Of a stretch of DNA of 64,000 nucleotides, positions 1,907 to 55,162 are shown one piece after another (position 1 is the stretch's first letter; every line of letters starts with the position of its first letter). Below the pieces are notes generated by a model. It did no database searches and was not told the DNA's origin. It saw only the letters and a program-made list of their open reading frames with translations. Origin of the DNA: an uncultured Candidatus Saccharibacteria bacterium (lineage in GTDB: Bacteria > Patescibacteriota > Minisyncoccia > UBA6257 > UBA9933); contig CAYRXZ010000002.1 of assembly GCA_964428615.1 (NCBI GenBank), positions 968-64,967 of the forward strand. The letters are read 5' to 3'. The translations under genes and the position numbers were made by a program.

Positions 1907-3630
1907 TCAATTAACCCAGTTGTATTTTCTACCTCCTCAAAGGTGGTTATCCCGGAAATTACTTTTAAAATTCCGTCCTCCTGCATTAATACTATTCCTT
2001 TTTTTTCAGCTAGTTCTTTAATACCAATTTCTGTTGGGTTTTTGCCTATTAATAATTCCATATCGCCATCAACCAAAAGAAGTTCAAATACTCCCACTCT
2101 ACCTTTATATCCTAAATTATTACACTTATTACATCCTTTTTGTTCAAAAATTTTAATGTTTGATTTATAAAAATCTTTATCTATTCTATCTGGCAATTTT
2201 TCAATGAAATTTTTTATCTTGCCCTCTAATTCAACGTCTATTTTCTTTTCGACCTTACAATTTTCGCAAAGCTTTCTTACTAAACGCTGAGCAATTATCA
2301 TATTAACCGCCGGCGCAAGCACGGAAGTTTTAACCCCTAAATCCAACATTCTCGGAATCGCGCCCGATGCGTCATTTGTATGAAGAGTTGAAAATACCAA
2401 GTGGCCGGTTAATGAAGCATGAATTGCTATTTCGGCAGTTTCTAAATCCCTAATTTCACCAATTAAAATCATATCCGGGTCCTGCCTTAATAAAGAACGT
2501 AAACCACTTGAAAAGTTATACCCGGCCTCAGGGTCAACTTGTGTCTGCTCTATGCCCTCAAGATGATATTCTATTGGGTCTTCAATGGTGATTGTTTTTG
2601 ACTCTGATTTTTGAGTGTGTTGTAAAAAAGCGTAAAGAGTTGTTGTTTTTCCGGAACCGGTAGGACCGGTATTCAAAATCATTCCATTGGGCTTTGAAAG
2701 TTCTCTTTCAACTATTTCCAAATCATCTTTTCTAAACCCCAATTGGGGCAGTTCCACATGAATTGCATCTGGATTTAAAATTCTTAAAACCACAGTCTCT
2801 CCAAACTCTGAAGGATTGATTGATGTTCTTATTTCTATTTCTTTATCGGATAAAGAAATAGTAAAGCGGCCATCTTGAGCTTGATTGTCTACATTAATTT
2901 TAAGACCAGAAAGAAGTTTTATACGAGAAACAATACTAATATGAATTTTTGACTTTAATCCATTAAAAATATCATATAATAAGCCGTCTATTCTTAAACG
3001 AATTTTTGCTGAATCTTCTGATGGTTCAAAGTGAATATCTGACGCCCTCATAGAAAGAGCTCCAGCTAAAATAGCTTCCAAAATTTCACCAGTGTACCTA
3101 ATATCTTCATTCATCTTTCCTATTGAGTTATTTATACTCTGCAAGGAAACAAGTTCTTTTTTGAGCGCTACTAGTTTTTCTTCTTTAATTTTAATCCTAC
3201 CAGTAATGTTTTCCCCTTTTTGAGAGATAAATCTATAAAAATTCCAGATGTTATTCAACCCACTCAATGAAGTTGTGAAAACAGAAACAAAGTACCCTTG
3301 GGATTTTAACTTTTCGATAATTTTTTTTACTTCAAAGTCTTCTGAAGAAAAAACCGCCAAGGCAATTTTTTTTTCTTTAAATTCAACCGCTGCGAGTTTG
3401 GCGTTTTTTGCTTCTTCTTCGGGTATTAAAGAAAGCGCTTCTATATTTATTGATGTGGCTGATAGGTCAACATAAGGAAAGCCTGTTTTTTCCGCCCGAC
3501 GCTTAGCATCTCTTTCTTCGGCCTCACGTCTCATATTCGCCAATTTATCTTTTATTTTTAAAAAAGAGTTTTTGGGATTCATTTGTATAAATAATAAGGG
3601 CAAAATAATAAATAGTAAAGCTGAAACCAC
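1900..3630 (-). CDS. Type II secretion / type IV pilus assembly ATPase (GspE/PilB family)
   Basis: Walker A LNTGPTGSGKTTTLYAFL, Asp/His boxes, C-terminal tetracysteine zinc motif (CENC...CNKC). The first ~16 residues are hydrophobic, so the true start is probably an internal Met (MNPKN.. or MRREAEE..). Confidence 0.88.
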   Translation of the reverse strand: MVSALLFIILPLLFIQMNPKNSFLKIKDKLANMRREAEERDAKRRAEKTGFPYVDLSATSINIEALSLIPEEEAKNAKLAAVEFKEKKIALAVFSSEDFEVKKIIEKLKSQGYFVSVFTTSLSGLNNIWNFYRFISQKGENITGRIKIKEEKLVALKKELVSLQSINNSIGKMNEDIRYTGEILEAILAGALSMRASDIHFEPSEDSAKIRLRIDGLLYDIFNGLKSKIHISIVSRIKLLSGLKINVDNQAQDGRFTISLSDKEIEIRTSINPSEFGETVVLRILNPDAIHVELPQLGFRKDDLEIVERELSKPNGMILNTGPTGSGKTTTLYAFLQHTQKSESKTITIEDPIEYHLEGIEQTQVDPEAGYNFSSGLRSLLRQDPDMILIGEIRDLETAEIAIHASLTGHLVFSTLHTNDASGAIPRMLDLGVKTSVLAPAVNMIIAQRLVRKLCENCKVEKKIDVELEGKIKNFIEKLPDRIDKDFYKSNIKIFEQKGCNKCNNLGYKGRVGVFELLLVDGDMELLIGKNPTEIGIKELAEKKGIVLMQEDGILKVISGITTFEEVENTTGLIEL

Positions 3631-3634
3631 TAAG

Positions 3635-3662
3635 TTGACAAATTAAAAAAAGGTGGTATACT
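3635..3662 (+). promoter_or_regulatory. Near-consensus sigma70-type promoter: TTGACA, 16-nt spacer, TATACT
   Basis: TTGACA at 3635-3640 and TATACT at 3657-3662. Followed by a strong Shine-Dalgarno (aaaggagg, and gaggagggg before the 3752 ATG). Confidence 0.55.
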
Positions 3663-3751
3663 GCATTGTAGCGACATTGAAATAACTAAATATCAAAAAG
3701 GAGGTTTAAGTATGGAAACAAAAAATAAAAAATCCGAGGAGGGGAAAGATT

Positions 3752-4279
3752 ATGCGAGTTATCATAATAATTGCAAGATTTTTACTGGTAGTGGTTGTGG
3801 CGACAACGATGTTGTCGGGTTGCGCTGTAATGACCACGAAAGCGAAACCCCCAATCATCATCACGGGACCAATGGGGATACAAACAGACAGAGACAGCTA
3901 CAGGCTGATTCGAATTAAGAACGCCAGTCAGGCGTACTGGCGATTCTGGCTCGGGGCAAACAGACAAGAATTTATCCTGTTTCCGGGTAGAGTCTTGTTT
4001 GTAAAAATGCCCAATAACTTCTGGGGAAAATGCCAGGGGTTTTGGTCCCACGCATACATGGAAGTCAACAACAACGGCACGGTTGATATTTCAACCTTCG
4101 CAGGAGAACAATGGTCCCAGGTTTGTATAACCGGGAATAAGTGGATATGTGAAACTGGGGAAGTCATCGGTGGAGACATCGTCTTTGGTGGAATACCTCA
4201 GTCTAATTATCATTATCCCACTCATTTTAGTGTTTCAGTTCCATTTGTACCTGTGGGTTTGCACCTACAAACGCGTTAA
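3752..4279 (+). CDS. Secreted lipoprotein (signal peptide plus lipobox L-S-G-C), unknown function; gene is GC-rich relative to surroundings
   Basis: MRVIIIIARFLLVVVVATTMLSGC is a classic lipoprotein signal peptide. The body of the gene is about 50% GC against about 30% in the flanks. An alternative 68-aa ORF in another frame starting at the 3712 ATG has an even better Shine-Dalgarno site. Confidence 0.6.
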   Translation: MRVIIIIARFLLVVVVATTMLSGCAVMTTKAKPPIIITGPMGIQTDRDSYRLIRIKNASQAYWRFWLGANRQEFILFPGRVLFVKMPNNFWGKCQGFWSHAYMEVNNNGTVDISTFAGEQWSQVCITGNKWICETGEVIGGDIVFGGIPQSNYHYPTHFSVSVPFVPVGLHLQTR

Positions 4280-4295
4280 CCTCCCAATTCTTAGT

Positions 4296-4350
4296 CCCCG
4301 CGACTCGCAATGGCATTCCAAACCAAAGCGAATCGTGGGGCATTTTTTAT
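4296..4350 (+). terminator. Intrinsic terminator: 13-bp stem (one mismatch, one G-U pair) followed by T-rich tract
   Basis: ccccgcgactcgc ... gcgaatcgtgggg, then cattttttattgattttttt, directly after the lipoprotein stop. Confidence 0.5.
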
Positions 4351-4404
4351 TGATTTTTTTATAAACTTCTTGATTATAAATTAATAAATTTATAAAATAG
4401 TGGT

Positions 4405-4941
4405 ATGTCAGGACACTCTCATTGGGCGGGGATAAAACATAAAAAAGGCGCGGCAGACCAAAAACGCGGTTTGGTTTTTTCAAAACTTTTAAACGCAATT
4501 TCTATCGCCACTAAAACCGAATCTAATCCTCAGTTCAACCCGCGACTAAGAACAGCTATTGAAAAAGCCCAACAAAAAAATGTCCCAAAAGATAATATTG
4601 AACGGGCGGTTAAGCGCGCATCTGAACAAAAAGATTTAGAGGAACTTATCATTGAAGCTTATGGACCAGAAGGCTCAGCTATTTTAATAGAGGCTATAAC
4701 CGATAGTCGCAATCGGACAATTTCAGAGGTTAAAAAGATTTTGAGCGATAATAATGCGAAATTCGGCGAACAAGGAAGTGTGCGTTGGGCTTTTGAAAAT
4801 ATAAATGGTGACGATGGAATTATTTGGCAAATAAAATTTAAACAAGAAATATCTAAAGACGCCAAACAAAAACTTCAAGGATTAATCAAAAAACTTGAAG
4901 AGCGCGACGACATACAAAATATTTATACAAATATAAATTAA
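4405..4941 (+). CDS. yebC: YebC/PmpR-family transcriptional regulator (short form, 178 aa)
   Basis: N-terminus MSGHSHWAGIKHKKGAADQKRG..FSKL is the YebC signature. Classic yebC-ruvC adjacency. About 70 aa shorter than the canonical ~245 aa protein. Confidence 0.8.
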   Translation: MSGHSHWAGIKHKKGAADQKRGLVFSKLLNAISIATKTESNPQFNPRLRTAIEKAQQKNVPKDNIERAVKRASEQKDLEELIIEAYGPEGSAILIEAITDSRNRTISEVKKILSDNNAKFGEQGSVRWAFENINGDDGIIWQIKFKQEISKDAKQKLQGLIKKLEERDDIQNIYTNIN

Positions 4942-7714: not shown

Positions 7715-8833
7715 TTAATTAGCATTTATAGGCATTAAAATATAAAAACAAGATATATCTGTTGGTGATTTTATTAAAACTGGTTTATTTCCACCATTAA
7801 ATCCAAAAAATATATTATCTGAATTAATAGATTTAATTCCATCTATAATAAATCTCCAATTAAAAATTATTTCAACGCCCGCGCCCTTTATTTTCGCCGG
7901 TATTAAATAATTATTCTCTCCAAGTGATTGATTTGAAGAAAAAACTTTAATATTTTTTGAATTATCTTTTATAGAAATTTTTATCTCATTTAATTTATCC
8001 GTAAAAGAGCTTACTAATTTTAACGCTGAAATTAATTGCTCTTTTTCAAATATAGTTTCAGTTTCAAAAGATTGAGGAATAATTATTTGATAATCAGGAA
8101 ATTCACCACTAATTAAACGTGAAATAATTTCACAATTTTCATTTTTAAATAAAACCTGATTAGAATCAAAATAAATTTTTATTTCCCCATCTTCATTTTT
8201 AAAATTTCTTATTATTTCGTGTATTGTTTTTAAGGGAATTATAATTTTAAAATTATCTTCTATTTCTGTTTTAAATTGGGTATTTATTATTGTTTTTTCA
8301 GCAAGTCTAAAACTATCAGTAACAACAATTTTAAAATAATTATTTTGGAAATCAAAAAGTGCACCACTTAGTTCTGGTTTTATTTCTGAAATTTGACCAG
8401 CTCCAACGACAGACATAAAAGCGTTTTTAATTAAAGATGATGATATTTTAATAAATAAATCATTTTTTATTTGAGGAATTATTGGAAAATCATCTTTTTT
8501 TCCAATATGAATCTTGGCTTGATAATTATCTGTTTTTATAAATAAATAACCACCTTCAGTTTCAAGATTTATTCTTTCACTTTGAATATTATTTATAATT
8601 AAATTAAAAATATTAAATGGAATAGTAAAAATTCCACCTTCAACAACCTTACACGGAATAAATGCCGTAACTGCTATTTCAAGATTTGTGGCTAATAATT
8701 TTATTTTATTATCAATTGTTTCTAATAAAAAATTTTTTAAAACTGGTAAAGCGGCGGAATTATTATCCATTCCAACTTTTCCAATTATATCCAATCCTGT
8801 TTTAAGATTATTTTTTAAAATTATTATTTTCAT
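7715..8833 (-). CDS. dnaN: DNA polymerase III beta sliding clamp DnaN
   Basis: 372 aa, three-domain size. Lies immediately downstream of dnaA in the same orientation. N-terminus MKIIILKNNL.. is clamp-like. Sequence is divergent, so the call rests mostly on synteny and size. Confidence 0.75.
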   Translation of the reverse strand: MKIIILKNNLKTGLDIIGKVGMDNNSAALPVLKNFLLETIDNKIKLLATNLEIAVTAFIPCKVVEGGIFTIPFNIFNLIINNIQSERINLETEGGYLFIKTDNYQAKIHIGKKDDFPIIPQIKNDLFIKISSSLIKNAFMSVVGAGQISEIKPELSGALFDFQNNYFKIVVTDSFRLAEKTIINTQFKTEIEDNFKIIIPLKTIHEIIRNFKNEDGEIKIYFDSNQVLFKNENCEIISRLISGEFPDYQIIIPQSFETETIFEKEQLISALKLVSSFTDKLNEIKISIKDNSKNIKVFSSNQSLGENNYLIPAKIKGAGVEIIFNWRFIIDGIKSINSDNIFFGFNGGNKPVLIKSPTDISCFYILMPINAN

Positions 8834-9012
8834 ATATTTTTATAATAACTCCTATTATAATATATTAATAAATAATAGTAGTAGTTAGTGTGGTTAATTA
8901 TGTTAATTAGTTTTTAATATAATGTATTTATTGATTAAATTTTAAGTTTATTTTTTTATAACAACTTAATTAAAACTTAATTAATAGTGGAAAACTAAAA
9001 ATAATATTTTTA
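8834..9012. promoter_or_regulatory. dnaA-dnaN intergenic AT-rich region with DnaA-box-like motifs (TGTGGTTAA, AGTGGAAAA); candidate DNA-unwinding element and second half of a bipartite oriC
   Basis: About 85-90% AT over 180 bp. 9-mers one or two mismatches from the TGTGGATAA consensus. Repeated cttaatta motifs. Position is analogous to the Bacillus-type oriC between dnaA and dnaN. Confidence 0.4.
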
Positions 9013-13778: not shown

Positions 13779-13853
13779 GCTCCTATCGTCTAGTCTGGTC
13801 TAGGACGCCAGGTTTTCATCCTGGTAACTCGGGTTCGAATCCCGATGGGAGCG
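13779..13853 (+). tRNA. tRNA-Glu (anticodon TTC)
   Basis: Manual cloverleaf: acceptor GCTCCTA/TGGGAGC, anticodon stem CCAGG/CCTGG with loop TTTTCAT, T-arm TCGGG-TTCGAAT-CCCGA. CCA is not encoded. Confidence 0.85.
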
Positions 13854-46330: not shown

Positions 46331-47635
46331 ATGAATTTTTCTAAAACTCAGATAATAATTTTAGGAATAATAGGATCAATAGTTTTGTTTTTCACGCTGG
46401 TTTTTTTGGGTGTTATCCCGGGCCTAAAAACTTCAGGCTTGGGTAGTTTTACATTTGGGCCAGGTGGAGGAGATCAAGTAAAAATTAATTTTTGGGGTAT
46501 AGCTGAGGCTGATAGTCAAAATTCAGTACAGAAATTAATTGAAGAATATTCAAAAACTAATGGGAATATCCAAATAGCTTATCGTCACTTTGATGATGCG
46601 GAAACCTATGAAAAAACCTTATTGAATTCTTTAGCAATAGGGCAGGGGCCCGACATTTTTATGTTCCATAGCAGCTGGCTGATAAAACATTATGACAAAG
46701 CCGCGTCAGCACCTGAACCTTTAAATTTAAATTATATTCAACAAATATTTCCTGATGTGGTCCGGTATGATTTTTCGATAGAAAATAACGTTTACGCTTT
46801 GCCGCTTTATATAGACACATTAGCTATTATTTATAATAAAGATATTTTTAATGCTAAATCAATCGCTTTGGTGCCGAAAACATGGGCGGAATTTGAAAGT
46901 TTAGTTCCACAACTTCGGGAATTAAATATTTTAAATCAAGTAGTTAGGCCGGCTGCGGCAATAGGCGGTTCAAATAAGAGCATTAATACGGCTTCGGATA
47001 TATTAAATCTTTTGATTCTTCAATCAGGCAGTCAAATAGTTGATAAGCAAGGGCAAGTGACTTTAGGGCAAGATGCATTATCGGCTTTCAATTTTTATAT
47101 TCAATTTGCTGACCCTTCGGGCAGCTATTATACGTGGAATGATAATATCGGCAATTCGATAGAGCTTTTTAGTAGGGGAGATTTAGCGACAATTTTTGAT
47201 TATCAGTCGTCTCTTGCGTCAATAAAGGCAAGAAATCCTTATTTAAATATAGGAATTAGCGCTATGCCGCAATCAAATCTTGCGCAGCCAATTAATTATT
47301 CTGATTATTGGGGACTAGCAGTTTCAAGACAGAGCAAAAATCAAATTTTAGGATGGAATTTTATTATTGCTGTAACAGCAGACCCAAAAATGTCGGAAAT
47401 TTATCTTAAAGCAGCTGGAAAGCCACCGGCATTACGTTCTCTTATAGAAAAATATAAAATAGATGCCAATTTGAGTATTTTTGCCAAACAGGCGCTTACG
47501 GCAAAGTCTTGGCTCAAGTCAGACGGTAAAGCCATTAATCAAATTTTCTCAAATATGATAGGATATGTTTTAAATGGGAAATTATCTTCAGATAAGGCGA
47601 TGAATCAGGCCAAAAACGAAATAAACGCTTTATGA
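46331..47635 (+). CDS. Membrane-anchored extracellular solute-binding protein (ABC-type, family-1-like); no permease or ATPase genes adjacent
   Basis: N-terminal TM anchor, then a MalE-like fold pattern (KINFWGIAE.., GPDIFMF..). 434 aa. Confidence 0.65.
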   Translation: MNFSKTQIIILGIIGSIVLFFTLVFLGVIPGLKTSGLGSFTFGPGGGDQVKINFWGIAEADSQNSVQKLIEEYSKTNGNIQIAYRHFDDAETYEKTLLNSLAIGQGPDIFMFHSSWLIKHYDKAASAPEPLNLNYIQQIFPDVVRYDFSIENNVYALPLYIDTLAIIYNKDIFNAKSIALVPKTWAEFESLVPQLRELNILNQVVRPAAAIGGSNKSINTASDILNLLILQSGSQIVDKQGQVTLGQDALSAFNFYIQFADPSGSYYTWNDNIGNSIELFSRGDLATIFDYQSSLASIKARNPYLNIGISAMPQSNLAQPINYSDYWGLAVSRQSKNQILGWNFIIAVTADPKMSEIYLKAAGKPPALRSLIEKYKIDANLSIFAKQALTAKSWLKSDGKAINQIFSNMIGYVLNGKLSSDKAMNQAKNEINAL

Positions 47636-48048
47636 TTAGTAAAATGAAAAATTCAATTTTATTTTTTGCTTTGTATTTCGCGTTTTTTGCCGCTCGCGCC
47701 AATGCCGCTGGCGCTGGCCTGGTGCCTTGCGGAGGAGCCGAGCAAAACCCATGTACTTGGTGTCATTTCAGTCAGTTGGCGATAAATATTATAGACTTTA
47801 TGATGTATTTGGTTTTTCCTCTGGCGGCGGTAATGATTGTTATTGGTGGTATATTTATTATGACTTCCGGAGGTTCAAGCGCCAGGTTTAGCAAAGGGAA
47901 AGAAATGATTACTGGAGCGGTTATCGGAATTTTAATTGCCTTGCTTTCTTGGATAATTATTGATACAATAATTCAAACAATCGCGGTAGGTTGGGACGGT
48001 TTAAACTTAACTCCGTGGAATAAAATAAATTTAGGCGAAAAATGTTAA
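47632..48048 (+). CDS. TrbC/VirB2-like small secreted two-helix protein, paralogue 1 (signal peptide; Cys-rich CGGAEQNPCTWCH segment)
   Basis: Signal peptide MKNSILFFALYFAFFAARANA, then two hydrophobic helices separated by a short Lys-rich loop. Paralogous to the next four genes. Confidence 0.5.
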   Translation: MISKMKNSILFFALYFAFFAARANAAGAGLVPCGGAEQNPCTWCHFSQLAINIIDFMMYLVFPLAAVMIVIGGIFIMTSGGSSARFSKGKEMITGAVIGILIALLSWIIIDTIIQTIAVGWDGLNLTPWNKINLGEKC

Positions 48049-48051
48049 TTT

Positions 48052-48390
48052 ATGGCTAAATTTTCAAAAAAATTATTAGGCGTCGCTTTAGCGGCAGGTA
48101 ATGATTTAAAAAGCGCTGCTCAGCAGTTAGCGCAGGGTTCGCCAATCAGCAGTCCCGAAAAAATATTCTCAATTTTACAAAAAGTAGTCCAATATACCTA
48201 TACGGTTTTTTTCATTGTCGCAGTTTTATTTATTTTAATCGCCGCTTTTAATTTTTTAAATGCAAAAGGGGACCCGATTAAAATTAATAGCGCCAAAAGC
48301 CAAATTCTTTGGGCAATAGTGGCGATTGTTGTTGCTTTAGTATCGCTTGGAGCAGCTCAAATAATAAATAGTTTTATTGAGGGCGCCTAA
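48052..48390 (+). CDS. TrbC/VirB2-like small two-helix protein, paralogue 2
   Basis: Core ..ILQKVVQYTYTVFFIVAVLFILIAAFNFLNAKGDPIKINSAKSQILWAIVAIVVALVSLG shared with its neighbours. Confidence 0.5.
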   Translation: MAKFSKKLLGVALAAGNDLKSAAQQLAQGSPISSPEKIFSILQKVVQYTYTVFFIVAVLFILIAAFNFLNAKGDPIKINSAKSQILWAIVAIVVALVSLGAAQIINSFIEGA

Positions 48391-48398
48391 GAATAAAA

Positions 48399-48842
48399 AT
48401 GAGGAAAGCACTTATATTTTCAACTATTTTAATTTCTTTTTTGCCCTTTTTTGCTTTGGCGCAATTTACGCCGGGCTCAATTCCGGAACCCAGCGATTAC
48501 GGCATAAAAGGAGCAGAAAATATACCCACAAATAGCGATGATTTATTAGATATTTTAAGGTCAGTGGTTAAATTTGTTTATATAGCCTTTTTTATCATTG
48601 CTGTTTTGTTTATAGTGATTGCTGCGTTTAATTATTTGACTGGAGCTGATGCTCCAGATAAGATTAAAGCTGCTCATACACAGTTAGTTTATTCAATTAT
48701 CGCTATTGGCATAGCCTTACTAGCGTTGACATTACAGGTAGTTGTTGGAAGTTTCATTAAAAACACCGGCGGTTCAACTGTGCAAGAAAATCAAATTCAG
48801 TCCGGCTATCAATTAAATGATGGGTCTACGATGTATCGATAA
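48399..48842 (+). CDS. TrbC/VirB2-like small secreted two-helix protein, paralogue 3
   Basis: Signal peptide ..FFALA/QF. Core DILRSVVKFVYIAFFIIAVLFIVIAAFNYLTGADAPDKIKAAHTQLVYSIIAIGIALLALT. Confidence 0.5.
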   Translation: MRKALIFSTILISFLPFFALAQFTPGSIPEPSDYGIKGAENIPTNSDDLLDILRSVVKFVYIAFFIIAVLFIVIAAFNYLTGADAPDKIKAAHTQLVYSIIAIGIALLALTLQVVVGSFIKNTGGSTVQENQIQSGYQLNDGSTMYR

Positions 48843-48899
48843 ATTAAAAATTACATAATATAGACATAAAAGGTCGATTATTGAAAAATTAATTAAATT

Positions 48900-49280
48900 A
48901 TGAATTTATCAAAATCAAAGTTTATAGCGGCAGTTATTGCGGTTTCGATTATTTTGCCGCTTGCGAGTGTTGTTTATGCTCAACCGCAAACAGGTCTTAC
49001 TTTGCCTGGGGCAAATACCAATATTACAACTGTCTCTGGCATGGTTGACATTCTTCGCGGAATTGTTAGGTGGGTTTATGTTATATTCTTTATAATCGCT
49101 GTGTTATTTATTATTTTCGCGGCGTTCACCTATTTAACTGCGGGCGGAGACCCGGAAAAAACAAACAAAGCAAAGAATCAACTGATTTATGCAGCTGTTG
49201 CTATCGCCGTAGCTTTATTAGCGGTTGGGTTTCAGTCTATCGTAAGTAATTTCTTAGCTGCTCCGACAGCAGGAGTGTAA
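48900..49280 (+). CDS. TrbC/VirB2-like small secreted two-helix protein, paralogue 4
   Basis: Signal peptide ..SVVYA/QP. Core DILRGIVRWVYVIFFIIAVLFIIFAAFTYLTAGGDPEKTNKAKNQLIYAAVAIAVALLAVG. Confidence 0.5.
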   Translation: MNLSKSKFIAAVIAVSIILPLASVVYAQPQTGLTLPGANTNITTVSGMVDILRGIVRWVYVIFFIIAVLFIIFAAFTYLTAGGDPEKTNKAKNQLIYAAVAIAVALLAVGFQSIVSNFLAAPTAGV

Positions 49281-49298
49281 TTAATTATTGAATTTAAA

Positions 49299-49333
49299 CA
49301 TACGAGTCCCGTTTATACGGCGGGGCTCGTATG
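49299..49333 (+). terminator. Stable hairpin after pilin-like paralogue 4 (catacgagtcccg...cggggctcgtatg); no clear U-tract
   Basis: 13-bp stem with one G-U pair. May act as a partial terminator or processing site inside the array. Confidence 0.35.
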
Positions 49334-49357
49334 AAAATCGATTAGGATATTTTAATA

Positions 49358-49702
49358 ATGATAAAGTCTTTTCTAGAAAATATTTTTTTGAGTTTTAATA
49401 ATGTAGCGCATGGTGCTCCTGGTATAGGCGGTTTTCCTGGCGGTGGAACACTTCCAAATCCACTTGGAGAAGGCAGCACTTTTATTACAGTAATAAATAA
49501 TATTTTAAATTATTTAATATACATCAGCGCGCCGATTTTAGCGATAATGATTTTAGTCGGCGGTTTTCAGATTTTAACCGCTAAAGGCGAACCCGGAAAG
49601 ATAGTTTCTGGAAAACAGACGATAACATACGCCATTATAGGATTTCTTATAATTTTGGTTTCAAAAGGTGTGGCACTTATTCTTTTGAAAATAATGCAAT
49701 AA
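49358..49702 (+). CDS. TrbC/VirB2-like small two-helix protein, paralogue 5 (Gly/Pro-rich N-terminal segment)
   Basis: Core ..ILNYLIYISAPILAIMILVGGFQILTAKGEPGKIVSGKQTITYAIIGFLIILVS. The most divergent member. Confidence 0.45.
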   Translation: MIKSFLENIFLSFNNVAHGAPGIGGFPGGGTLPNPLGEGSTFITVINNILNYLIYISAPILAIMILVGGFQILTAKGEPGKIVSGKQTITYAIIGFLIILVSKGVALILLKIMQ

Positions 49703-49760
49703 AAAAAAATGACCCCGACAGCGAATGAATAAATAATTCACTGTCGGGGTTTTTGTTTTA
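49701..49760. terminator. Bidirectional intrinsic terminator (A9, ccccgacag...ctgtcgggg, T-rich) between the pilin-like array and the GC-rich island
   Basis: 9-bp GC stem flanked by A and T runs. Convergent genes on either side. Confidence 0.6.
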
Positions 49761-50174
49761 TCGCACTCGTACGATTTCTACGAGTGTCGTCGTTTTTACG
49801 CCTTGTGCGTTTATTAGGCGTAATCTCCCGGCGGGTGCTTCGCCGGTCCAACTTTCCCATCCGGCGGGCATATCGTAGATGATACGCTTACCGTCGAGTT
49901 GGTTTGCTATTGCTCTGTATGGAGCATTCCCACGCAAGCGGTGCAGTGTACCTGGACCGCCATAGATAGTGAGTACTTCATTGCATTTGCCCTTTTCGTC
50001 GCAGGGCGGGAGACAGAATGTTTGGGGTTGGAGTTGTGCTACCCGCGTTTCAGTCGGCGGCTTACTCTTGTCATCTTTTGTCACTATTACTATTGTTATC
50101 GCAATAATAACAACCGAAACAATTAGCAACGCCGCGCTTTTACCGCTAAGTATTTTTACTTTATTAACTGCCAT
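49758..50174 (-). CDS. Membrane-anchored hypothetical protein (N-terminal TM, CxxxC..C segment), GC-rich, co-oriented with the SPFH gene
   Basis: About 50-55% GC. TM helix AALLIVSVVIIAITIVIV. Start overlaps the SPFH stop by 11 nt. Possible NfeD-like partner, but no clear match. Confidence 0.45.
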   Translation of the reverse strand: MAVNKVKILSGKSAALLIVSVVIIAITIVIVTKDDKSKPPTETRVAQLQPQTFCLPPCDEKGKCNEVLTIYGGPGTLHRLRGNAPYRAIANQLDGKRIIYDMPAGWESWTGEAPAGRLRLINAQGVKTTTLVEIVRVR

Positions 50175-51243
50175 TTTTTCTCTCCTTCCAATTTTTTAAC
50201 AGATTAGACAGCAGATCTAAACCCTCAAGAGAAATTATTTTTCTGTCAATCGTGGCCTTGCCGGTCATTGCCGTTTCCGCTAAATTAACCGCCAGTTGCT
50301 CAGGGAGTTTCATATTCACATACTCGTTAATCATCTTTACTTTTTGCTCTTGTCTTTTTTGCGCTGCTTCCATTTCAGCCCCAGCTTGCCTCACGCTTTC
50401 CAGCGCTTTTTTGGTTGCTTCTGAAAAATCGACATCTGCAAGTCTGAAGATAGCGATATCAATCCCATAGAGTTTCTCTATGGATGAGAGTTTTTCTTTC
50501 AATTCCGCCTCCTGCTCAAGGAGAAAAGAAGCTCTTGTGATGTTTTGTTCATAAAAAGACAGTTCATCAAGAACAATTTCTTTTTCTCCTTTCTCTTCTT
50601 TTAACACTATCGGCAACTGCCATCTCGACTTTTCTATTTTTTCCGCTATCTCATTATATTCTTCGCCTTTAACCGATTTTTCTATGTCTACCAAATACTC
50701 TTTCAGGCACTCTTCATCCATTTCATATTTTTCTACTTTTCCCTTGTTATCCCTTACTGGATTTACCCAATGATGAGGAGGTTTTTCCAGTCTTAAAACA
50801 CAGTTAATGAAAATTTCCAATGCTCTTCTTGACCGAATAAAGTTATCGCCTTCTTTAATACCGGCGATTTTCCCCAATTCGCTCTTCACAGCATCGGCCA
50901 TTCCATCAACAATTGTTTTTTCCTGCATCTCGATAAAAACATCAAGATTATCGGGCCGCCACTGAATCGAGCCGGCCGTCTTAATTTCAAGCCGATCCAT
51001 AGAAAAAACATCGAAAGAAAGTGATTTTGTTTGTAATTCTCTAGAAAAAAGCACTACTTTGTCTATGAAAGGCGCAATCGTATTTAGCCCTTCCCTGAGA
51101 ATCCTCACCTTTCCATTTCTTTTAATCCGCTCCTTAAATCGCGTTACTATCCCGAAATATACTGTCGGGATAATAACAATAGCATTAAGCGCTATCACAA
51201 CGGCTATTACAATCAATCCTATCAAGATTATCCATCCCATCAC
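50164..51243 (-). CDS. SPFH/band-7 (stomatin/prohibitin/flotillin-like) membrane protein with long C-terminal coiled coil
   Basis: N-terminal TM, then an SPFH pattern (PTVYFGIVTRFKER...GLNTIAPFIDKVVLFSRELQT..FSMDRLEIKTAGSIQWR). Strong Shine-Dalgarno ggaaggagg. Elevated GC. Confidence 0.7.
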   Translation of the reverse strand: MMGWIILIGLIVIAVVIALNAIVIIPTVYFGIVTRFKERIKRNGKVRILREGLNTIAPFIDKVVLFSRELQTKSLSFDVFSMDRLEIKTAGSIQWRPDNLDVFIEMQEKTIVDGMADAVKSELGKIAGIKEGDNFIRSRRALEIFINCVLRLEKPPHHWVNPVRDNKGKVEKYEMDEECLKEYLVDIEKSVKGEEYNEIAEKIEKSRWQLPIVLKEEKGEKEIVLDELSFYEQNITRASFLLEQEAELKEKLSSIEKLYGIDIAIFRLADVDFSEATKKALESVRQAGAEMEAAQKRQEQKVKMINEYVNMKLPEQLAVNLAETAMTGKATIDRKIISLEGLDLLSNLLKNWKERKNGS

Positions 51244-51522: not shown

Positions 51523-51900
51523 TTGTCTATAAGATTAACTCATGCGAAATCAAAGACAGTTAAAGATCTAGATATCCCAAACAATTATTTTGCAGATTTT
51601 TTAAGGGGCTGCATTGACGGAGATGGTTCTATTGGCGCGTTTAAGCATCCCGAAAGTAAACATCCTCAATTGCGAATAAGATTATATTCCGCAAGCGTAC
51701 CATTTTTACAATGGATTAAGAAAGAAGTTTTGTATAATACAAAAATAAAAACCGGCTGGATTGAAGAAAAAGAAGGTATTAATGTATTAGCTTATGCAAA
51801 AGAGGACTCTATTAAATTATTAAATTTTGTTTATTATAAAAACGTTGAATATTATTTAAAACGTAAATATAATATTGCGAAAGCATTTTTGCGGGTATAG
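51523..51900 (+). CDS. Free-standing single-motif LAGLIDADG-family homing-endonuclease-like protein (TTG start; 3' end overlaps tRNA-Leu by ~10 nt)
   Basis: FADFLRGCIDGDGSIGAF matches the LAGLIDADG signature at an I-CreI-like position. 125 aa, so short. Confidence 0.6.
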   Translation: MSIRLTHAKSKTVKDLDIPNNYFADFLRGCIDGDGSIGAFKHPESKHPQLRIRLYSASVPFLQWIKKEVLYNTKIKTGWIEEKEGINVLAYAKEDSIKLLNFVYYKNVEYYLKRKYNIAKAFLRV

Positions 51901-51972
51901 CCAAATTGGTAAAGGCGCATGGCTTAGAACCATGTGAGGAAACTCTTGGAGGTTCGAGTCCTCCTACCCGCA
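51891..51972 (+). tRNA. tRNA-Leu (anticodon TAG), type II with long variable arm
   Basis: Acceptor GCGGGTA/TACCCGC. Anticodon stem CATGG/CCATG with loop CTTAGAA. Variable arm tgaggaaactcttggag. T-arm GGTTCGAGTCC. Confidence 0.8.
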
Positions 51973-51976
51973 CAAT

Positions 51977-52933
51977 CTATTTTCTTCTTCTGCCGTGGAA
52001 AGTCTGATGGATTTCGCGGAGTTCTTTGTTTGTTAAATGAGTATAGATTTGAGTTGTGGAGACATTGGCATGGCCTAATAATTCTTGCACCGAACGCAAA
52101 TCCGCTCCGCCGATGAGTAAATCGGTGGCGAAAAGATGGCGAATAGTATGCGGATGTACTTTCTGCGGGATGCCGGCCTTTCTGGAATAAAAATCAACAA
52201 TTCTTTGAATGGTGCGGGGGAGTATTCTTCCGATTATTTTTGGGTTATCCGCTTTTGTTAAACTTATAAACAAAGCTTCTTCGGCATCGCCGCGTTTTTC
52301 CAAATAATTTTTAATTGCAGTTTTTGCGCGTTCGGAAAGAAAAACTATTCTTAGTTTTCCGCCTTTGCCGCGAATACTAATTTCTCCACGTTTTAAATCC
52401 AAATGTCGATTAAGCGCGCAAAGTTCGGAAATACGGAGACCGGTTGAAAACAGCATTTCTAAAATAGCTTTATCACGGAGAGAACGCAAGTCAGAACCTT
52501 TAGGCGCGGCAAGCAGTCTTTCTAGGTCGGCATATTCAATGATTTCAATCTGTCGGGTGGGAATTTTGGGCAGCTCTATTTTGTCCGGAGACATCACTTC
52601 AATATCGCGTTTGTTTATGTATTTCAGAAAATTTCTAATGGCAATGACATAATAACTTTGGGTAATTTTTTTTATATTTCTTCTTGCTAGAAAAAGCCGG
52701 AATTCGCGAATAATATCCGGTGTAATACTTTTTTCGGTTTTTATTTTCCCGAATCCCAAAAATGCTTTTAAATAGCGATCGTAATTTTCACGAGTTTTAA
52801 TTGAGCGGTTTTTTTCTATTTCCAGATAATTTAGGTAGTCATTAAGAAGCTTTTTTATATCTGCCATATTATTGTTGATTTTACCATTTTTAGTGGTATA
52901 ATTAAATGAAAGCTGAAAATGTTTATTGTTCAA
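51977..52933 (-). CDS. Tyrosine recombinase, XerC/XerD family (3' end 5 nt from the tRNA-Leu 3' end)
   Basis: Catalytic region ..GLRISELCALN.., HPHTIRHLFATDLL..G.DLR.VQELLGHANVSTTQIYTHL. The likely true start is the internal MADIKKLL.. (core-binding domain). Confidence 0.85.
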   Translation of the reverse strand: MNNKHFQLSFNYTTKNGKINNNMADIKKLLNDYLNYLEIEKNRSIKTRENYDRYLKAFLGFGKIKTEKSITPDIIREFRLFLARRNIKKITQSYYVIAIRNFLKYINKRDIEVMSPDKIELPKIPTRQIEIIEYADLERLLAAPKGSDLRSLRDKAILEMLFSTGLRISELCALNRHLDLKRGEISIRGKGGKLRIVFLSERAKTAIKNYLEKRGDAEEALFISLTKADNPKIIGRILPRTIQRIVDFYSRKAGIPQKVHPHTIRHLFATDLLIGGADLRSVQELLGHANVSTTQIYTHLTNKELREIHQTFHGRRRK

Positions 52934-53294: not shown

Positions 53295-53507
53295 ATGTAT
53301 CTCGGGATAGCTCAAATAATAGTTTCAATAGTTTTAATTGTCTTAATTCTTCTTCAGGAACGCTCTTCGGGGCTTTCTGGGGTTTTTGGCGGAGGCGGAG
53401 GAGAATTTTATTCTCAAAGGCGTGGTATGGAGCGCATGATTTTTATCGCTACCATTGTTTTAGCCGTGGCTTTCGTTCTTTTATCAGCTTTGAATTTGGT
53501 TGTATGA
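53295..53507 (+). CDS. secG: Preprotein translocase subunit SecG
   Basis: 70 aa, two TM helices around a LLQERSSGLSGVFGGGGGEFY glycine-rich loop. Confidence 0.78.
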   Translation: MYLGIAQIIVSIVLIVLILLQERSSGLSGVFGGGGGEFYSQRRGMERMIFIATIVLAVAFVLLSALNLVV

Positions 53508-55162
53508 ATTTTTTAATAAAGATTTTTAAAAGTTTCTCAAAAAAAGAGAAACTGCTGTTCGCGGTTTCTTTTTTGGCGTTTCTATCATCTTCAATTTTTT
53601 GGACCGCAGACTTTTTTTCTCAAAGAACGGTTTTAGCGGCAGTTTCTGGCGGTGAATACATCGAGGGTATTATGGGCCAGCCTAGTTTTATCAACCCGGT
53701 TTTATCTGTTCAAGGAGGAGTAGATAGTGATATTAATGAGTTAATTTTCAGTAAAATTATTGATATGTCGGATAGCGTTAAAATGAATAATAATGGAAAA
53801 GCCTGGGATATACGCTTAAAGGCAGATATTTTTTGGGATGATAAACAGCCAATAACAAGTAAGGATATTGATTTTACAATTAAAAAAATTCAAAACAGTG
53901 ATACTCAGTCGCCGCTTGAGCCGATGTGGCGCGGAGTTCAAACAGAGATAGTAAGTAAATTAGAAATAAAAGTAATACTTTCCGAACAGTATTTCTTCTT
54001 TGATGAAACATTGAAAAATTTAATGATAATCCCAGAGCATCTTTTTGCTGAAACTCCGGCGGCTAATATCAAGATTTCCGATTATAATCTTGAACCGACA
54101 GGCAACGGACTTTTTAGGTTTAAGTCTTTTAAAAAAGAAAAGTCGGGATTTATTTCAGAGTATAGATTTACCAGAAATGAAGCTTATTTCGGCAAAAAAC
54201 CTTATATTGAAAGTGTAGTTTTTAAATTTTATAAAAATGAGGATGAGTTGATAAAAGCTTTTAATTTAGGAGAAATTAATGGCTTTGGCGGAGTAAGCGC
54301 GAAAAATCTTAATAATATAAACATAAACAGTAAAGTTTTTAATTTGATGATGCCAAGATATTACGCTTTATTTTTCAACTCTTACGCGCAAAAGAATTTA
54401 GCAGGGAAGAATGTAAGAATGGCTTTGAATTATGCCACTGATAAGAAAAGAATAGTAGATGAAATTTTTAATGGCAATGCAATTGTTGTCGACGGGCCGA
54501 TAATTTTAGGGATGAATGGTTATAAACCGGAAACTTTTTCAGAAAACGTTTTTTCATTGGAAAAGGCGGCAAGTGTTTTAGATGTTGACGGTTGGCGAAT
54601 TGATGAAGATGGGATTCGCGCAAAAACAGTTAAAAAAGAAATATTACGCTTAGAATTTAATTTGATTTGTCCGAAAGTTCAATACATGGAAGACTCCGCT
54701 AATATAATTACTTCTGATTGGGCAAAAATAGGAATTAAGCTTAATATTTTGATTAAATCCCCCGAAGAAATAGATGAAATAATCAAAACTAGAAATTATG
54801 AAATGATAATTTTTGGCAATAGTTTTGTAAGTTACAATAACCCCGATTTGTCATCGTTCTGGTATTCATCGCAAAAGTTTTATCCAGGGTTTAATTTATC
54901 GCTTTACGAAAATAAATCAGTTGATAATTTAATTAAAATTTCAAGAGAAACAACAAGTGATTCAAGGCGCCAGTCTGCTCTTTCAAGTTTGCAATCTATT
55001 ATTGTCGGCGATCAACCGGCGATATTTCTTTTTTCGCCAGATTATATTTACATTAACAAGTTGCAATTGGGAGGTTTTGAGGAAACAAAAATAAATTCTG
55101 CAAGCGACCGTTTTCGAAATATTGAAAATTGGTATATTAAAACTGCAAGAGTATTTAAATAA
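53504..55162 (+). CDS. Membrane-anchored extracellular solute-binding protein, family 5 (oligopeptide/nickel-type); orphan
   Basis: N-terminal TM, then a family-5 solute-binding pattern (..YRFTRNEAYFGKKPYIESVVFKFYKNEDE..A...GEIDG). 552 aa. No permease genes nearby. Confidence 0.6.
   Translation: MNFLIKIFKSFSKKEKLLFAVSFLAFLSSSIFWTADFFSQRTVLAAVSGGEYIEGIMGQPSFINPVLSVQGGVDSDINELIFSKIIDMSDSVKMNNNGKAWDIRLKADIFWDDKQPITSKDIDFTIKKIQNSDTQSPLEPMWRGVQTEIVSKLEIKVILSEQYFFFDETLKNLMIIPEHLFAETPAANIKISDYNLEPTGNGLFRFKSFKKEKSGFISEYRFTRNEAYFGKKPYIESVVFKFYKNEDELIKAFNLGEINGFGGVSAKNLNNININSKVFNLMMPRYYALFFNSYAQKNLAGKNVRMALNYATDKKRIVDEIFNGNAIVVDGPIILGMNGYKPETFSENVFSLEKAASVLDVDGWRIDEDGIRAKTVKKEILRLEFNLICPKVQYMEDSANIITSDWAKIGIKLNILIKSPEEIDEIIKTRNYEMIIFGNSFVSYNNPDLSSFWYSSQKFYPGFNLSLYENKSVDNLIKISRETTSDSRRQSALSSLQSIIVGDQPAIFLFSPDYIYINKLQLGGFEETKINSASDRFRNIENWYIKTARVFK

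Follow-up and report, generated by a model that had tools for sequence, protein, structure and literature searches.

The ultra-small CPR bacteria have not been brought into culture, and very little is known of their surface biology. The locus described here raises a question about both the history and the surface of one such organism: is a small, GC-rich lipoprotein gene in an otherwise low-GC stretch of DNA a recently acquired island, as an earlier note on this DNA had proposed, or an old gene of the lineage whose unusual composition is maintained by selection? The stretch of DNA analysed (the window, 64 kb) has an overall GC content of 35.2% and encodes an LTD-domain protein, RuvB, PilB, YebC, RuvC, PBP1, DnaN, DnaA, RnpA, YidC, tmRNA/SmpB, ComEC, and five T4SS-pilin paralogues. 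The YebC encoded here shares 90% identity with the protein of Candidatus Wolfebacteria RBG_13_41_7, and this identity, together with the gene content, places the window in Wolfebacteria-like Paceibacteria of the CPR (Patescibacteria). No rRNA gene lies within the 64-kb window, and the tRNA gene nearest to the lipoprotein gene is at 13779. The lipoprotein gene sits in a replication-origin-proximal block, RuvB-PilB / lipoprotein-YebC-RuvC-PBP1-DnaN-DnaA, and its position between divergent pilB-like and yebC genes, the former on the minus strand and the latter on the plus strand, is as first described. The genes at the center of the analysis are the following:

Probable start at 3582, minus strand: gene for a PilB-type ATPase (Pfam T2SSE, 1.3e-116)
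3752 to 4279, plus strand: lipoprotein precursor gene, the GC-rich core, with 175 codons plus stop, defined by the ORF list, homologues, and codon bias
From 4405, plus strand: YebC gene, the next gene downstream of the lipoprotein gene

The composition of the lipoprotein gene is atypical by several measures. The ORF at 3752-4279 has a GC content of 45.5% (GC1 46, GC2 42, GC3 48), compared with 35.0% and 33.7% in flanks of 2.2-2.4 kb. It is the top 528-nt GC peak of the 64 kb, matched by only 0.4% of sliding windows, and its GC3 of 0.483 is 2.9 standard deviations above the mean of 60 ORFs (0.301 ± 0.062). The contrast originally reported, about 50% GC against about 30%, is accurate for the peak 200-nt windows (50.0% at 3801-4000) and the adjoining intergenic DNA (∼30%), but gene-wide it shrinks to about 10 points. 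GC-ending codons number 73, against 46 expected from background codon usage with the same amino acids, and the measured GC1 and GC2 combined with the background-expected GC3 would give a gene of ∼39% GC in a back-of-envelope calculation; roughly one-third of the GC excess comes from amino-acid composition and two-thirds from synonymous choice. Gly, Val, Thr, Trp, Cys, and Pro are abundant in the protein, and Lys, Glu, Leu, and Asp are scarce. In composition and codon usage, then, the gene has the atypical profile by which genomic islands are detected.

The synonymous component is mainly a preference for C over T. The ratio C/(C+T) at pyrimidine-ending codons is 0.53 in the lipoprotein gene versus 0.21 (p = 8e-7), and the ratio G/(G+A) at the Lys, Glu, and Gln codons of the window gene shows no significant shift. 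Across the 11 orthologue loci with flanking genes, the pyrimidine shift has the same direction in all 11 and reaches p < 0.05 in nine, while the shift at purine-ending codons is significant in just four. A bias that is mainly pyrimidine-specific and independent of lineage fits selection on translation, not a foreign mutational background. The rpoB/rpoC-sized ORFs, S6, SSB, and RecA of the window, all presumably well expressed, lack the C-ending bias and so give no sign of genome-wide translational selection; the reference for codon usage here was the genes of the window, a set without ribosomal-protein and EF-Tu genes. The sole other gene sharing the codon signature, at 49758-50174, also has a Shine-Dalgarno (SD) site.

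Relatives of the gene bear most directly on the question of transfer. About 20 distinct homologues were found, from 82% down to 21% identity, in a near clade (44-82%) and a remote clade (21-29%), one member of the latter being annotated from Ca. Wolfebacteria. Searching 1.8 billion representatives exhaustively with HMMER yielded just three further relatives, all remote; another protein from that search, P0011, proved to be a spurious repeat protein and was rejected. Every homologue whose contig extends beyond the gene, remote members included, occupies the same slot, with RuvB and PilB divergent upstream and YebC, RuvC, a small ORF, PBP1, DnaN, and DnaA downstream. The remote homologues in this slot are 21-25% identical to the window protein and come from genomes whose YebC is 66-90% identical. 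Orthologues have GC contents of 42.5-54.6% versus 30-43% for their respective loci, and every one of them is richer than its surroundings. At four-fold sites, the window gene is 26-38% identical to its orthologues, and 44% identical to the closest relative (82% amino-acid identity). Because these sites are near saturation, an imported composition would have decayed, and the GC-richness has instead been maintained.

The earlier note had itself stated that homologues of the same composition throughout close relatives would imply ancestry rather than transfer, and this is what was found: all relatives found share the slot and the elevated GC. Nor is the gene absent from relatives, as would be expected of a recent island. 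Recent horizontal acquisition from a higher-GC donor, with a composition that has not yet drifted to that of the host, would account for composition and codon usage that are the most atypical of the 60 ORFs and for a family that is very small and patchy in databases. It is contradicted by a slot, promoter, and terminator shared by all the relatives, even those at 21% identity, by a GC excess that is present in every orthologue although the GC content of the hosts ranges from 30% to 41%, and by the saturation of four-fold sites. The C-over-T shift, with its weak and inconsistent purine counterpart, is also unlike the trace of a uniformly GC-rich donor. Around the lipoprotein gene, the only flanking repeats are low-complexity A/T ones, no integrase, transposase, or other mobility gene and no adjacent tRNA gene is present, and a scan of viral contigs found no relative of the lipoprotein. 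By the standard set in the note, recent acquisition is refuted, and it is very improbable on this balance. That the gene is old, vertically inherited, and fixed in position is instead part of the best explanation set out below, which taken as a whole is judged to be probably correct.

The lipoprotein has diverged far more quickly than the neighbouring YebC. It is 44-60% identical where YebC is 81-90% identical; the corresponding values are 44-47% versus 81-84% for locus L001 and 21-23% versus 66-79% for L027 and L024. Four-fold sites compared in the same genome pairs are 27-34% identical in the lipoprotein gene versus 46-57% in the YebC gene. Two loci from different metagenomes, L011 and L012, differ at 2 of 300 and 0 of 400 positions in their flanks and are identical over the initial 285 nt of the gene. 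An internal segment of 171 nt follows with 44 differences, and a single further mismatch occurs before the stop codon. The changed codons comprise 16 synonymous and 16 non-synonymous cases, with all substitution types represented and most changes at third positions. This pattern indicates that the internal segment is an exchanged allelic cassette. A target gene of a diversity-generating retroelement (DGR) was considered and rejected, as the window holds no second copy and the changes are of all types, not adenine-specific, with half of the changed codons synonymous. Fast divergence and mosaic alleles fit an exposed surface protein and suggest that the lipoprotein is surface-exposed.

The same observations lend some weight to an ancient transfer into the ancestor of the clade, after which selection preserved the composition or allelic exchange between lineages replaced the gene again and again. 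Such a history would be in keeping with four-fold sites that are more diverged in the lipoprotein gene than in the YebC gene of the same genome pairs and with an internal segment demonstrably exchanged between strains. It would also suit the situation in more distant Paceibacteria, where two or three other small GC-rich lipoproteins occupy the slot; profile-profile comparison matched these to the present family in the signal peptide only, with no detectable homology. However, no donor is identifiable, and the regulatory signals common to the remote members argue for one old origin in place. We regard ancient transfer as unlikely and retain the reading of an old gene inherited vertically. The two accounts differ solely in the ultimate origin of the gene.

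What the gene encodes can be divided into two parts:

3752 to 3823, plus strand: signal peptide carrying the L-S-G-C lipobox, with Cys24 encoded by TGC at 3821-3823
3824 to 4276, plus strand: mature domain of ∼151 amino acids, predicted to be an all-beta sandwich

The LSGC lipobox recognized at the outset was evaluated with a PS51257-type rule, which calls for [LVI][ASTVI][GAS]C after an uncharged hydrophobic stretch, the Cys at residues 15-35, and a Lys or Arg near the N-terminus. The window protein conforms to the rule with L21-S22-G23-C24, R2, and R9. Among family sequences tested, the lipobox pattern is present in 20 of 20 and the N-terminal Lys or Arg in 19 of 20, the exception being that of L005, which has the pattern but no Lys or Arg among its first seven residues. 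The assignment as a lipoprotein-type precursor is thus supported by the family as well as by the window protein, which resembles generic Sec/SPII lipoproteins (PS51257) in its positive N-terminus, hydrophobic core, and L-S-G-C with Cys24. Neither Lgt nor LspA was found among the scanned ORFs of the 64-kb window. The two solute-binding proteins of the window have uncleaved transmembrane anchors and no lipoboxes, so the conserved Cys is the sole indication that this organism uses the lipoprotein pathway. The literature yielded no usable account of lipoprotein machinery in Parcubacteria or Wolfebacteria.

The mature domain sets the protein apart from generic Sec/SPII lipoproteins, as it matches no described family. 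Scans of the window protein and 15 family members against Pfam, NCBIfam, and PHROGs returned nothing significant, and a profile search of PDB sequences found no match to the family. An AlphaFold model built with seven sequences was not usable (pLDDT 46), but a 15-sequence alignment gave a usable model of the mature domain, a beta-sandwich with a pLDDT of 74.8. A fold search with this model produced generic beta-sandwich matches only, all of them below significance, which upholds the original remark that the domain has no recognisable family. Among the residues invariant across the family (N57, A101, Y102, G109, G118, G140, and P156), Gly, Pro, and aromatics predominate, and no catalytic-looking constellation is present. 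The window contains no paralogues or repeats of the gene and no duplicate of any stretch of it, and no phase-variation tracts were seen. By these comparisons, the family is unnamed and restricted to Candidatus Wolfebacteria-like Paceibacteria, and the lipoprotein is a putative new, unnamed addition to the bacterial lipoproteins.

With a PilB-type ATPase encoded next to it, the protein might instead be an accessory lipoprotein of type IV pili, similar to PilP or to pilotins, that works with the adjacent PilB. The gene is divergent beside that of PilB in the Wolfebacteria-like loci that reach upstream of it, and the protein resembles PilP and other small lipoproteins of T2SS and type IV pilus systems in its size, lipobox, and beta-sandwich prediction. 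Similarity goes no further: there is no match to PilP (PF04351) or to any other Pfam family even at E = 1, no sequence similarity, and no significant fold match to PilP or to the GspC HR domain. The gene is also a separate transcription unit with its own promoter and terminator, with no co-transcription with PilB, and in the more distant L030 the lipoproteins remain beside YebC though PilB is not adjacent. PilP acts with a secretin, and the window ORFs that were scanned against Pfam include no gene for one. A pilus accessory function is, accordingly, given little credence, and the protein is better described as a probable surface lipoprotein with a transcription unit of its own. The signals of that unit are the following:

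3635 to 3640, plus strand: -35 hexamer TTGACA, from a consensus scan in which the promoter matches 11 of 12 positions
3654 to 3662, plus strand: extended -10 element TGgTATACT, with the TG at 3654-3655 and the hexamer at 3657-3662
3698 to 3704, plus strand: SD site AAGGAGG of the upstream ORF, 7 nt before the ATG at 3712, -12.2 kcal/mol, rank 2 of 61
3712 to 3918, plus strand: upstream overlapping ORF of 68 codons, from the ORF list
3736 to 3744, plus strand: SD site GAGGAGGGG of the lipoprotein gene, -12.3 kcal/mol, rank 1 of 61 starts
4296 to 4350, plus strand: intrinsic terminator, an interrupted stem at 4296-4340 and then CATTTTTTAT, -24.1 kcal/mol, z = -3.5

The near-consensus sigma-70 promoter TTGACA-16-TATACT is present as reported, with the additional upstream TG. 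Five sites with at most one mismatch to the promoter consensus occur in the window versus 4.5 expected by chance, so the match is not significant on its own; among these five near-consensus sites, only that of the lipoprotein gene has the TG of an extended -10. Conservation adds to this, since TTGACAAA is at the same place in 10 of 10 orthologous loci with upstream DNA read, and TGTATAAT comes next in most orthologues, L011 and L027 deviating from it by one base and L024 having AGG where the others have TG. At the other end of the unit, folding confirmed the long-stem terminator, with its T-run after the stem, and each of the 11 orthologues that were folded likewise has a long-stem terminator behind its stop codon. 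The gene, with a promoter and a terminator of its own, is a single-gene unit, as had been proposed. The leader RNA has no significant structure (z = -1.3), and an Rfam search of 3550-4420 gave no match at E up to 1.

SD sites were scored at 61 predicted starts as duplex energy with the anti-SD tail, which was assumed because the rRNA is outside the window. Median energy was -1.0 kcal/mol, and an SD of -7 or stronger was found for just 5 of 60 genes even with alternative starts in the first 30 codons allowed, which marks the genome as SD-poor and agrees with the report that part of the Parcubacteria is without the anti-SD motif (PMC9297842). The GGAGG core of GAGGAGGGG is 9 nt upstream of the ATG at 3752. 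A strong SD, -8.0 to -13.0 kcal/mol, precedes every orthologue. Orthologues retain GGAGG-type motifs 3-10 nt before the start, and some lengthen the complementarity (GGAGGTGA), both of which argue that the SD pairing is real. The description of these expression signals as unusually strong for the genome holds up well, with the two SD sites ranking first and second of 61 and the extended -10 promoter conserved.

The second-ranked of these SD sites belongs to an ORF in another frame, which exists as described in the earlier note but does not make the true start ambiguous, as had been concluded from it. Thirteen codons of this ORF precede the lipoprotein ATG, 167 nt of it lie within the lipoprotein gene, and the lipoprotein frame is +1 relative to it. 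The lipoprotein frame opens after the TAA at 3707-3709 and has no start codon before the ATG at 3752. This, together with a signal peptide that aligns family-wide, settles the start: the conserved protein lies in the 3752 frame, and the 3712 ORF is a separate, overlapping one. The starts of public gene calls in this family (P0004, P0006, and the RBG_13_41_7 homologue) are mis-placed owing to the upstream ORF or to assembly Ns.

The upstream ORF varies in length and presence across the orthologous loci. A version with 23-24 codons before the overlap occurs in L004, L005, L011/L006/L007/L012, and L022/L029, and a 46-47-codon version occurs in L001 and L008; the ORF is absent from L016, L021, L024, and L027, and L013 has a short, SD-less version. 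Wherever it is present and the upstream DNA is readable, it has its own SD (-7.8 to -12.2 kcal/mol), with SD-like sites before the ORF in L011, L004, L001, L008, and L022. Each of the distances between the two ATGs (40, 70, 73, 139, and 142 nt) equals 1 mod 3, which implies that indels kept the frame of the upstream ORF. Its pN/pS is 0.4-0.7, a value that is uncorrected and obtained with pS near saturation. The peptide is weakly conserved, part of it (ILRKEG) being the lipoprotein SD read in another frame, and the position of the stop varies from 40 to 170 nt inside the lipoprotein gene. In comparison with the other loci, the window version is a shortened copy, with 11 codons lost in frame, of an upstream ORF conserved within the sub-clade, and the ORF is probably translated and weakly constrained. 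As ribosomes translating it would pass over the SD and AUG of the lipoprotein, the simplest reading is that it may have a modulating role.

Known leader peptides, such as those of erm, cat, and secM-secA, tune downstream translation. The upstream ORF is like them in being short, in having its own strong SD, and in covering the ribosome-binding site of a secreted-protein gene. It differs in that it overlaps out of frame and ends inside the main ORF, not upstream of it, and in having neither an identifiable conserved arrest motif nor a predicted leader RNA structure. A more radical proposal is that the real product is the 68-aa ORF itself, or an RNA or antisense gene, and that the 175-aa frame is incidental. 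The start at 3712 does have an ideal SD and spacing, and long antisense open frames do occur inside the lipoprotein gene. Yet the 175-aa frame is conserved as protein while its synonymous sites are saturated, and where the 68-aa ORF overlaps the gene, its stop is variable and it has no conservation of its own. Antisense frames are not consistently open across orthologues, ORFs in other frames are not conserved, and the lack of an Rfam match likewise speaks against an RNA gene. This proposal is scarcely credible, and the 175-aa lipoprotein is taken as the product.

The best explanation, judged probable overall, is that the locus is a monocistronic unit for a small, lipid-anchored, all-beta surface lipoprotein that is old and specific to a Wolfebacteria-like lineage and whose GC-richness is kept by selection. 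The promoter, unstructured leader, strongest SD, C-ending codons, and terminator would together yield high expression, and from these expression signals we infer that the gene is among the most highly expressed of the cell. The GC excess would be kept by selection on translation or on the mRNA, not by foreign origin, and translation of the upstream ORF may modulate how often the lipoprotein ORF is initiated. The precursor would be exported by Sec and diacylglycerol-modified at Cys24, after which signal peptidase II would cleave it, and the mature lipoprotein would be presented at the outer surface of the cytoplasmic membrane. There, the exposed protein would be under diversifying pressure, with host-cell contact and phage recognition as candidate pressures.

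Two well-known kinds of lipoprotein offer analogies. Lpp (Braun's lipoprotein) of E. coli is the classic gene built for maximal expression, and its 58-residue product forms an alpha-helical trimer that is attached to peptidoglycan in a diderm. The window gene is analogous as a one-gene unit for a small lipoprotein with a strong promoter, ribosome-binding site, and terminator, but its product is a predicted beta-sandwich of ∼151 residues in a presumably monoderm CPR cell and has no sequence or fold relationship to Lpp. Spiralin and the Vsp/Vlp proteins are abundant, variable surface lipoproteins of Mollicutes. Here, the analogy lies in lipid anchoring, small-genome host-dependent bacteria, fast evolution, and allelic mosaicism; in contrast to these systems, the window gene is single-copy, with no phase-variation tracts seen and no homology. 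A bolder form of the explanation would have the protein dominate the envelope of Wolfebacteria-like CPR cells as a functional counterpart of Lpp or spiralin. Its high output would come from a rare, SD-dependent mode of translation in a lineage that has mostly given up SD initiation, the translated upstream ORF would throttle it, and recombination between strains would diversify it as the surface that meets host cells or phages. This extended version is speculative and is considered doubtful.

The locus carries a caution for the detection of genomic islands, as atypical GC content and codon usage here mark an old, selected gene and not transfer. The few strong SD sites in an SD-poor genome may also provide a test of selective SD use in Parcubacteria, for which anti-SD loss has been reported (PMC9297842). 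If it is as conserved, top-expressed, and fast-evolving as inferred, the lipoprotein would be a candidate host-attachment or phage-receptor molecule of these bacteria, a candidate handle for antibody-based enrichment of Wolfebacteria, and a candidate marker locus for strain typing.

Shine-Dalgarno (SD) pairing is weak across the window, with a median energy of -1.0 kcal/mol over its starts and any candidate start at or below -7 kcal/mol in only 5 of 60 genes, values that presuppose an anti-SD tail; no rRNA lies within the 64 kb. The genome is SD-poor, and the scarcity of strong sites is consistent with the absence of the anti-SD motif reported for part of the Parcubacteria (PMC9297842). Beyond the lipoprotein locus, strong SD sites precede only two genes, at -11.7 and -8.8 kcal/mol, respectively:

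50164-51243, minus strand: Band7/SPFH gene
49758-50174, minus strand: membrane-anchored orphan of 138 aa, directly downstream, no Pfam match

The orphan has a GC content of 48% and shares with the lipoprotein gene a C-ending bias at pyrimidine-ending codons (0.59 in the orphan). From these sequence features, the pair (49758-51243) may constitute a second high-expression envelope unit.

Starts of lipoprotein homologues are misplaced in public gene calls. Those of database homologues P0004 and P0006 and of the Ca. Wolfebacteria RBG_13_41_7 protein lie too far 3′, with loss of the signal peptide; the cause is that the annotation picked up the upstream ORF that overlaps the gene, or, in L029, a mis-placed start. 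The mis-started calls, in loci of relatives, are:

L007, 354-791; true lipoprotein start at 279
L008, 520-930; true lipoprotein start at 424
L029, 2984-3433; assembly Ns also present

The lipoprotein alleles are also mosaic. Loci L011 and L012, which come from separate metagenomes, share the same flanking sequence and the same initial 285 nt of the gene, but 26% of positions differ in an internal 171-nt cassette (L011 4286-4456; L012 598-768), with equal numbers of synonymous and non-synonymous changes; L007 has the same cassette with six additional changes. The pattern is one of intragenic recombination between alleles.

Composition is extreme at dnaN (7715-9012), with a GC3 of 9% and an overall GC content of 22.8%, and the spacer region between dnaN and dnaA, at 12-15% GC, resembles a replication origin. 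Relatives, too, have a low GC3 in dnaN (0.11 in L027; 0.39 versus ~0.51 in L024).

Other genes of note lie further along the window:

46331-47635, plus strand: solute-binding protein SBP_bac_8/1, N-terminal transmembrane anchor
47632-49702, plus strand: five tandem T4SS-pilin paralogues (PF18895, TrbC/VirB2-like), directly 3′ of the preceding gene
51523-51900, plus strand: 125-aa ORF without a Pfam match, holding a LAGLIDADG homing-endonuclease-like motif (FLRGCIDGDGSIG) and abutting tRNA-Leu (51891-51973)
51977-52933, minus strand: tyrosine recombinase gene, directly after tRNA-Leu
53504-55162, plus strand: solute-binding protein SBP_bac_5, N-terminal transmembrane anchor

In more distant Paceibacteria (YebC identity 67-69%), the DNA just 5′ of YebC codes for two or three different small proteins with a lipobox (L030 3675-4892; L031 2771-4250), in genes that are likewise ~10 GC points over their own loci. 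Profile comparison with the window family matched the signal peptide alone, so these proteins have no detectable homology to it. Both solute-binding proteins of the window lack a lipobox cysteine, and of 60 ORFs only 3752-4279 encodes a lipoprotein of the PS51257 type, which suggests that lipid anchoring is used sparingly here.
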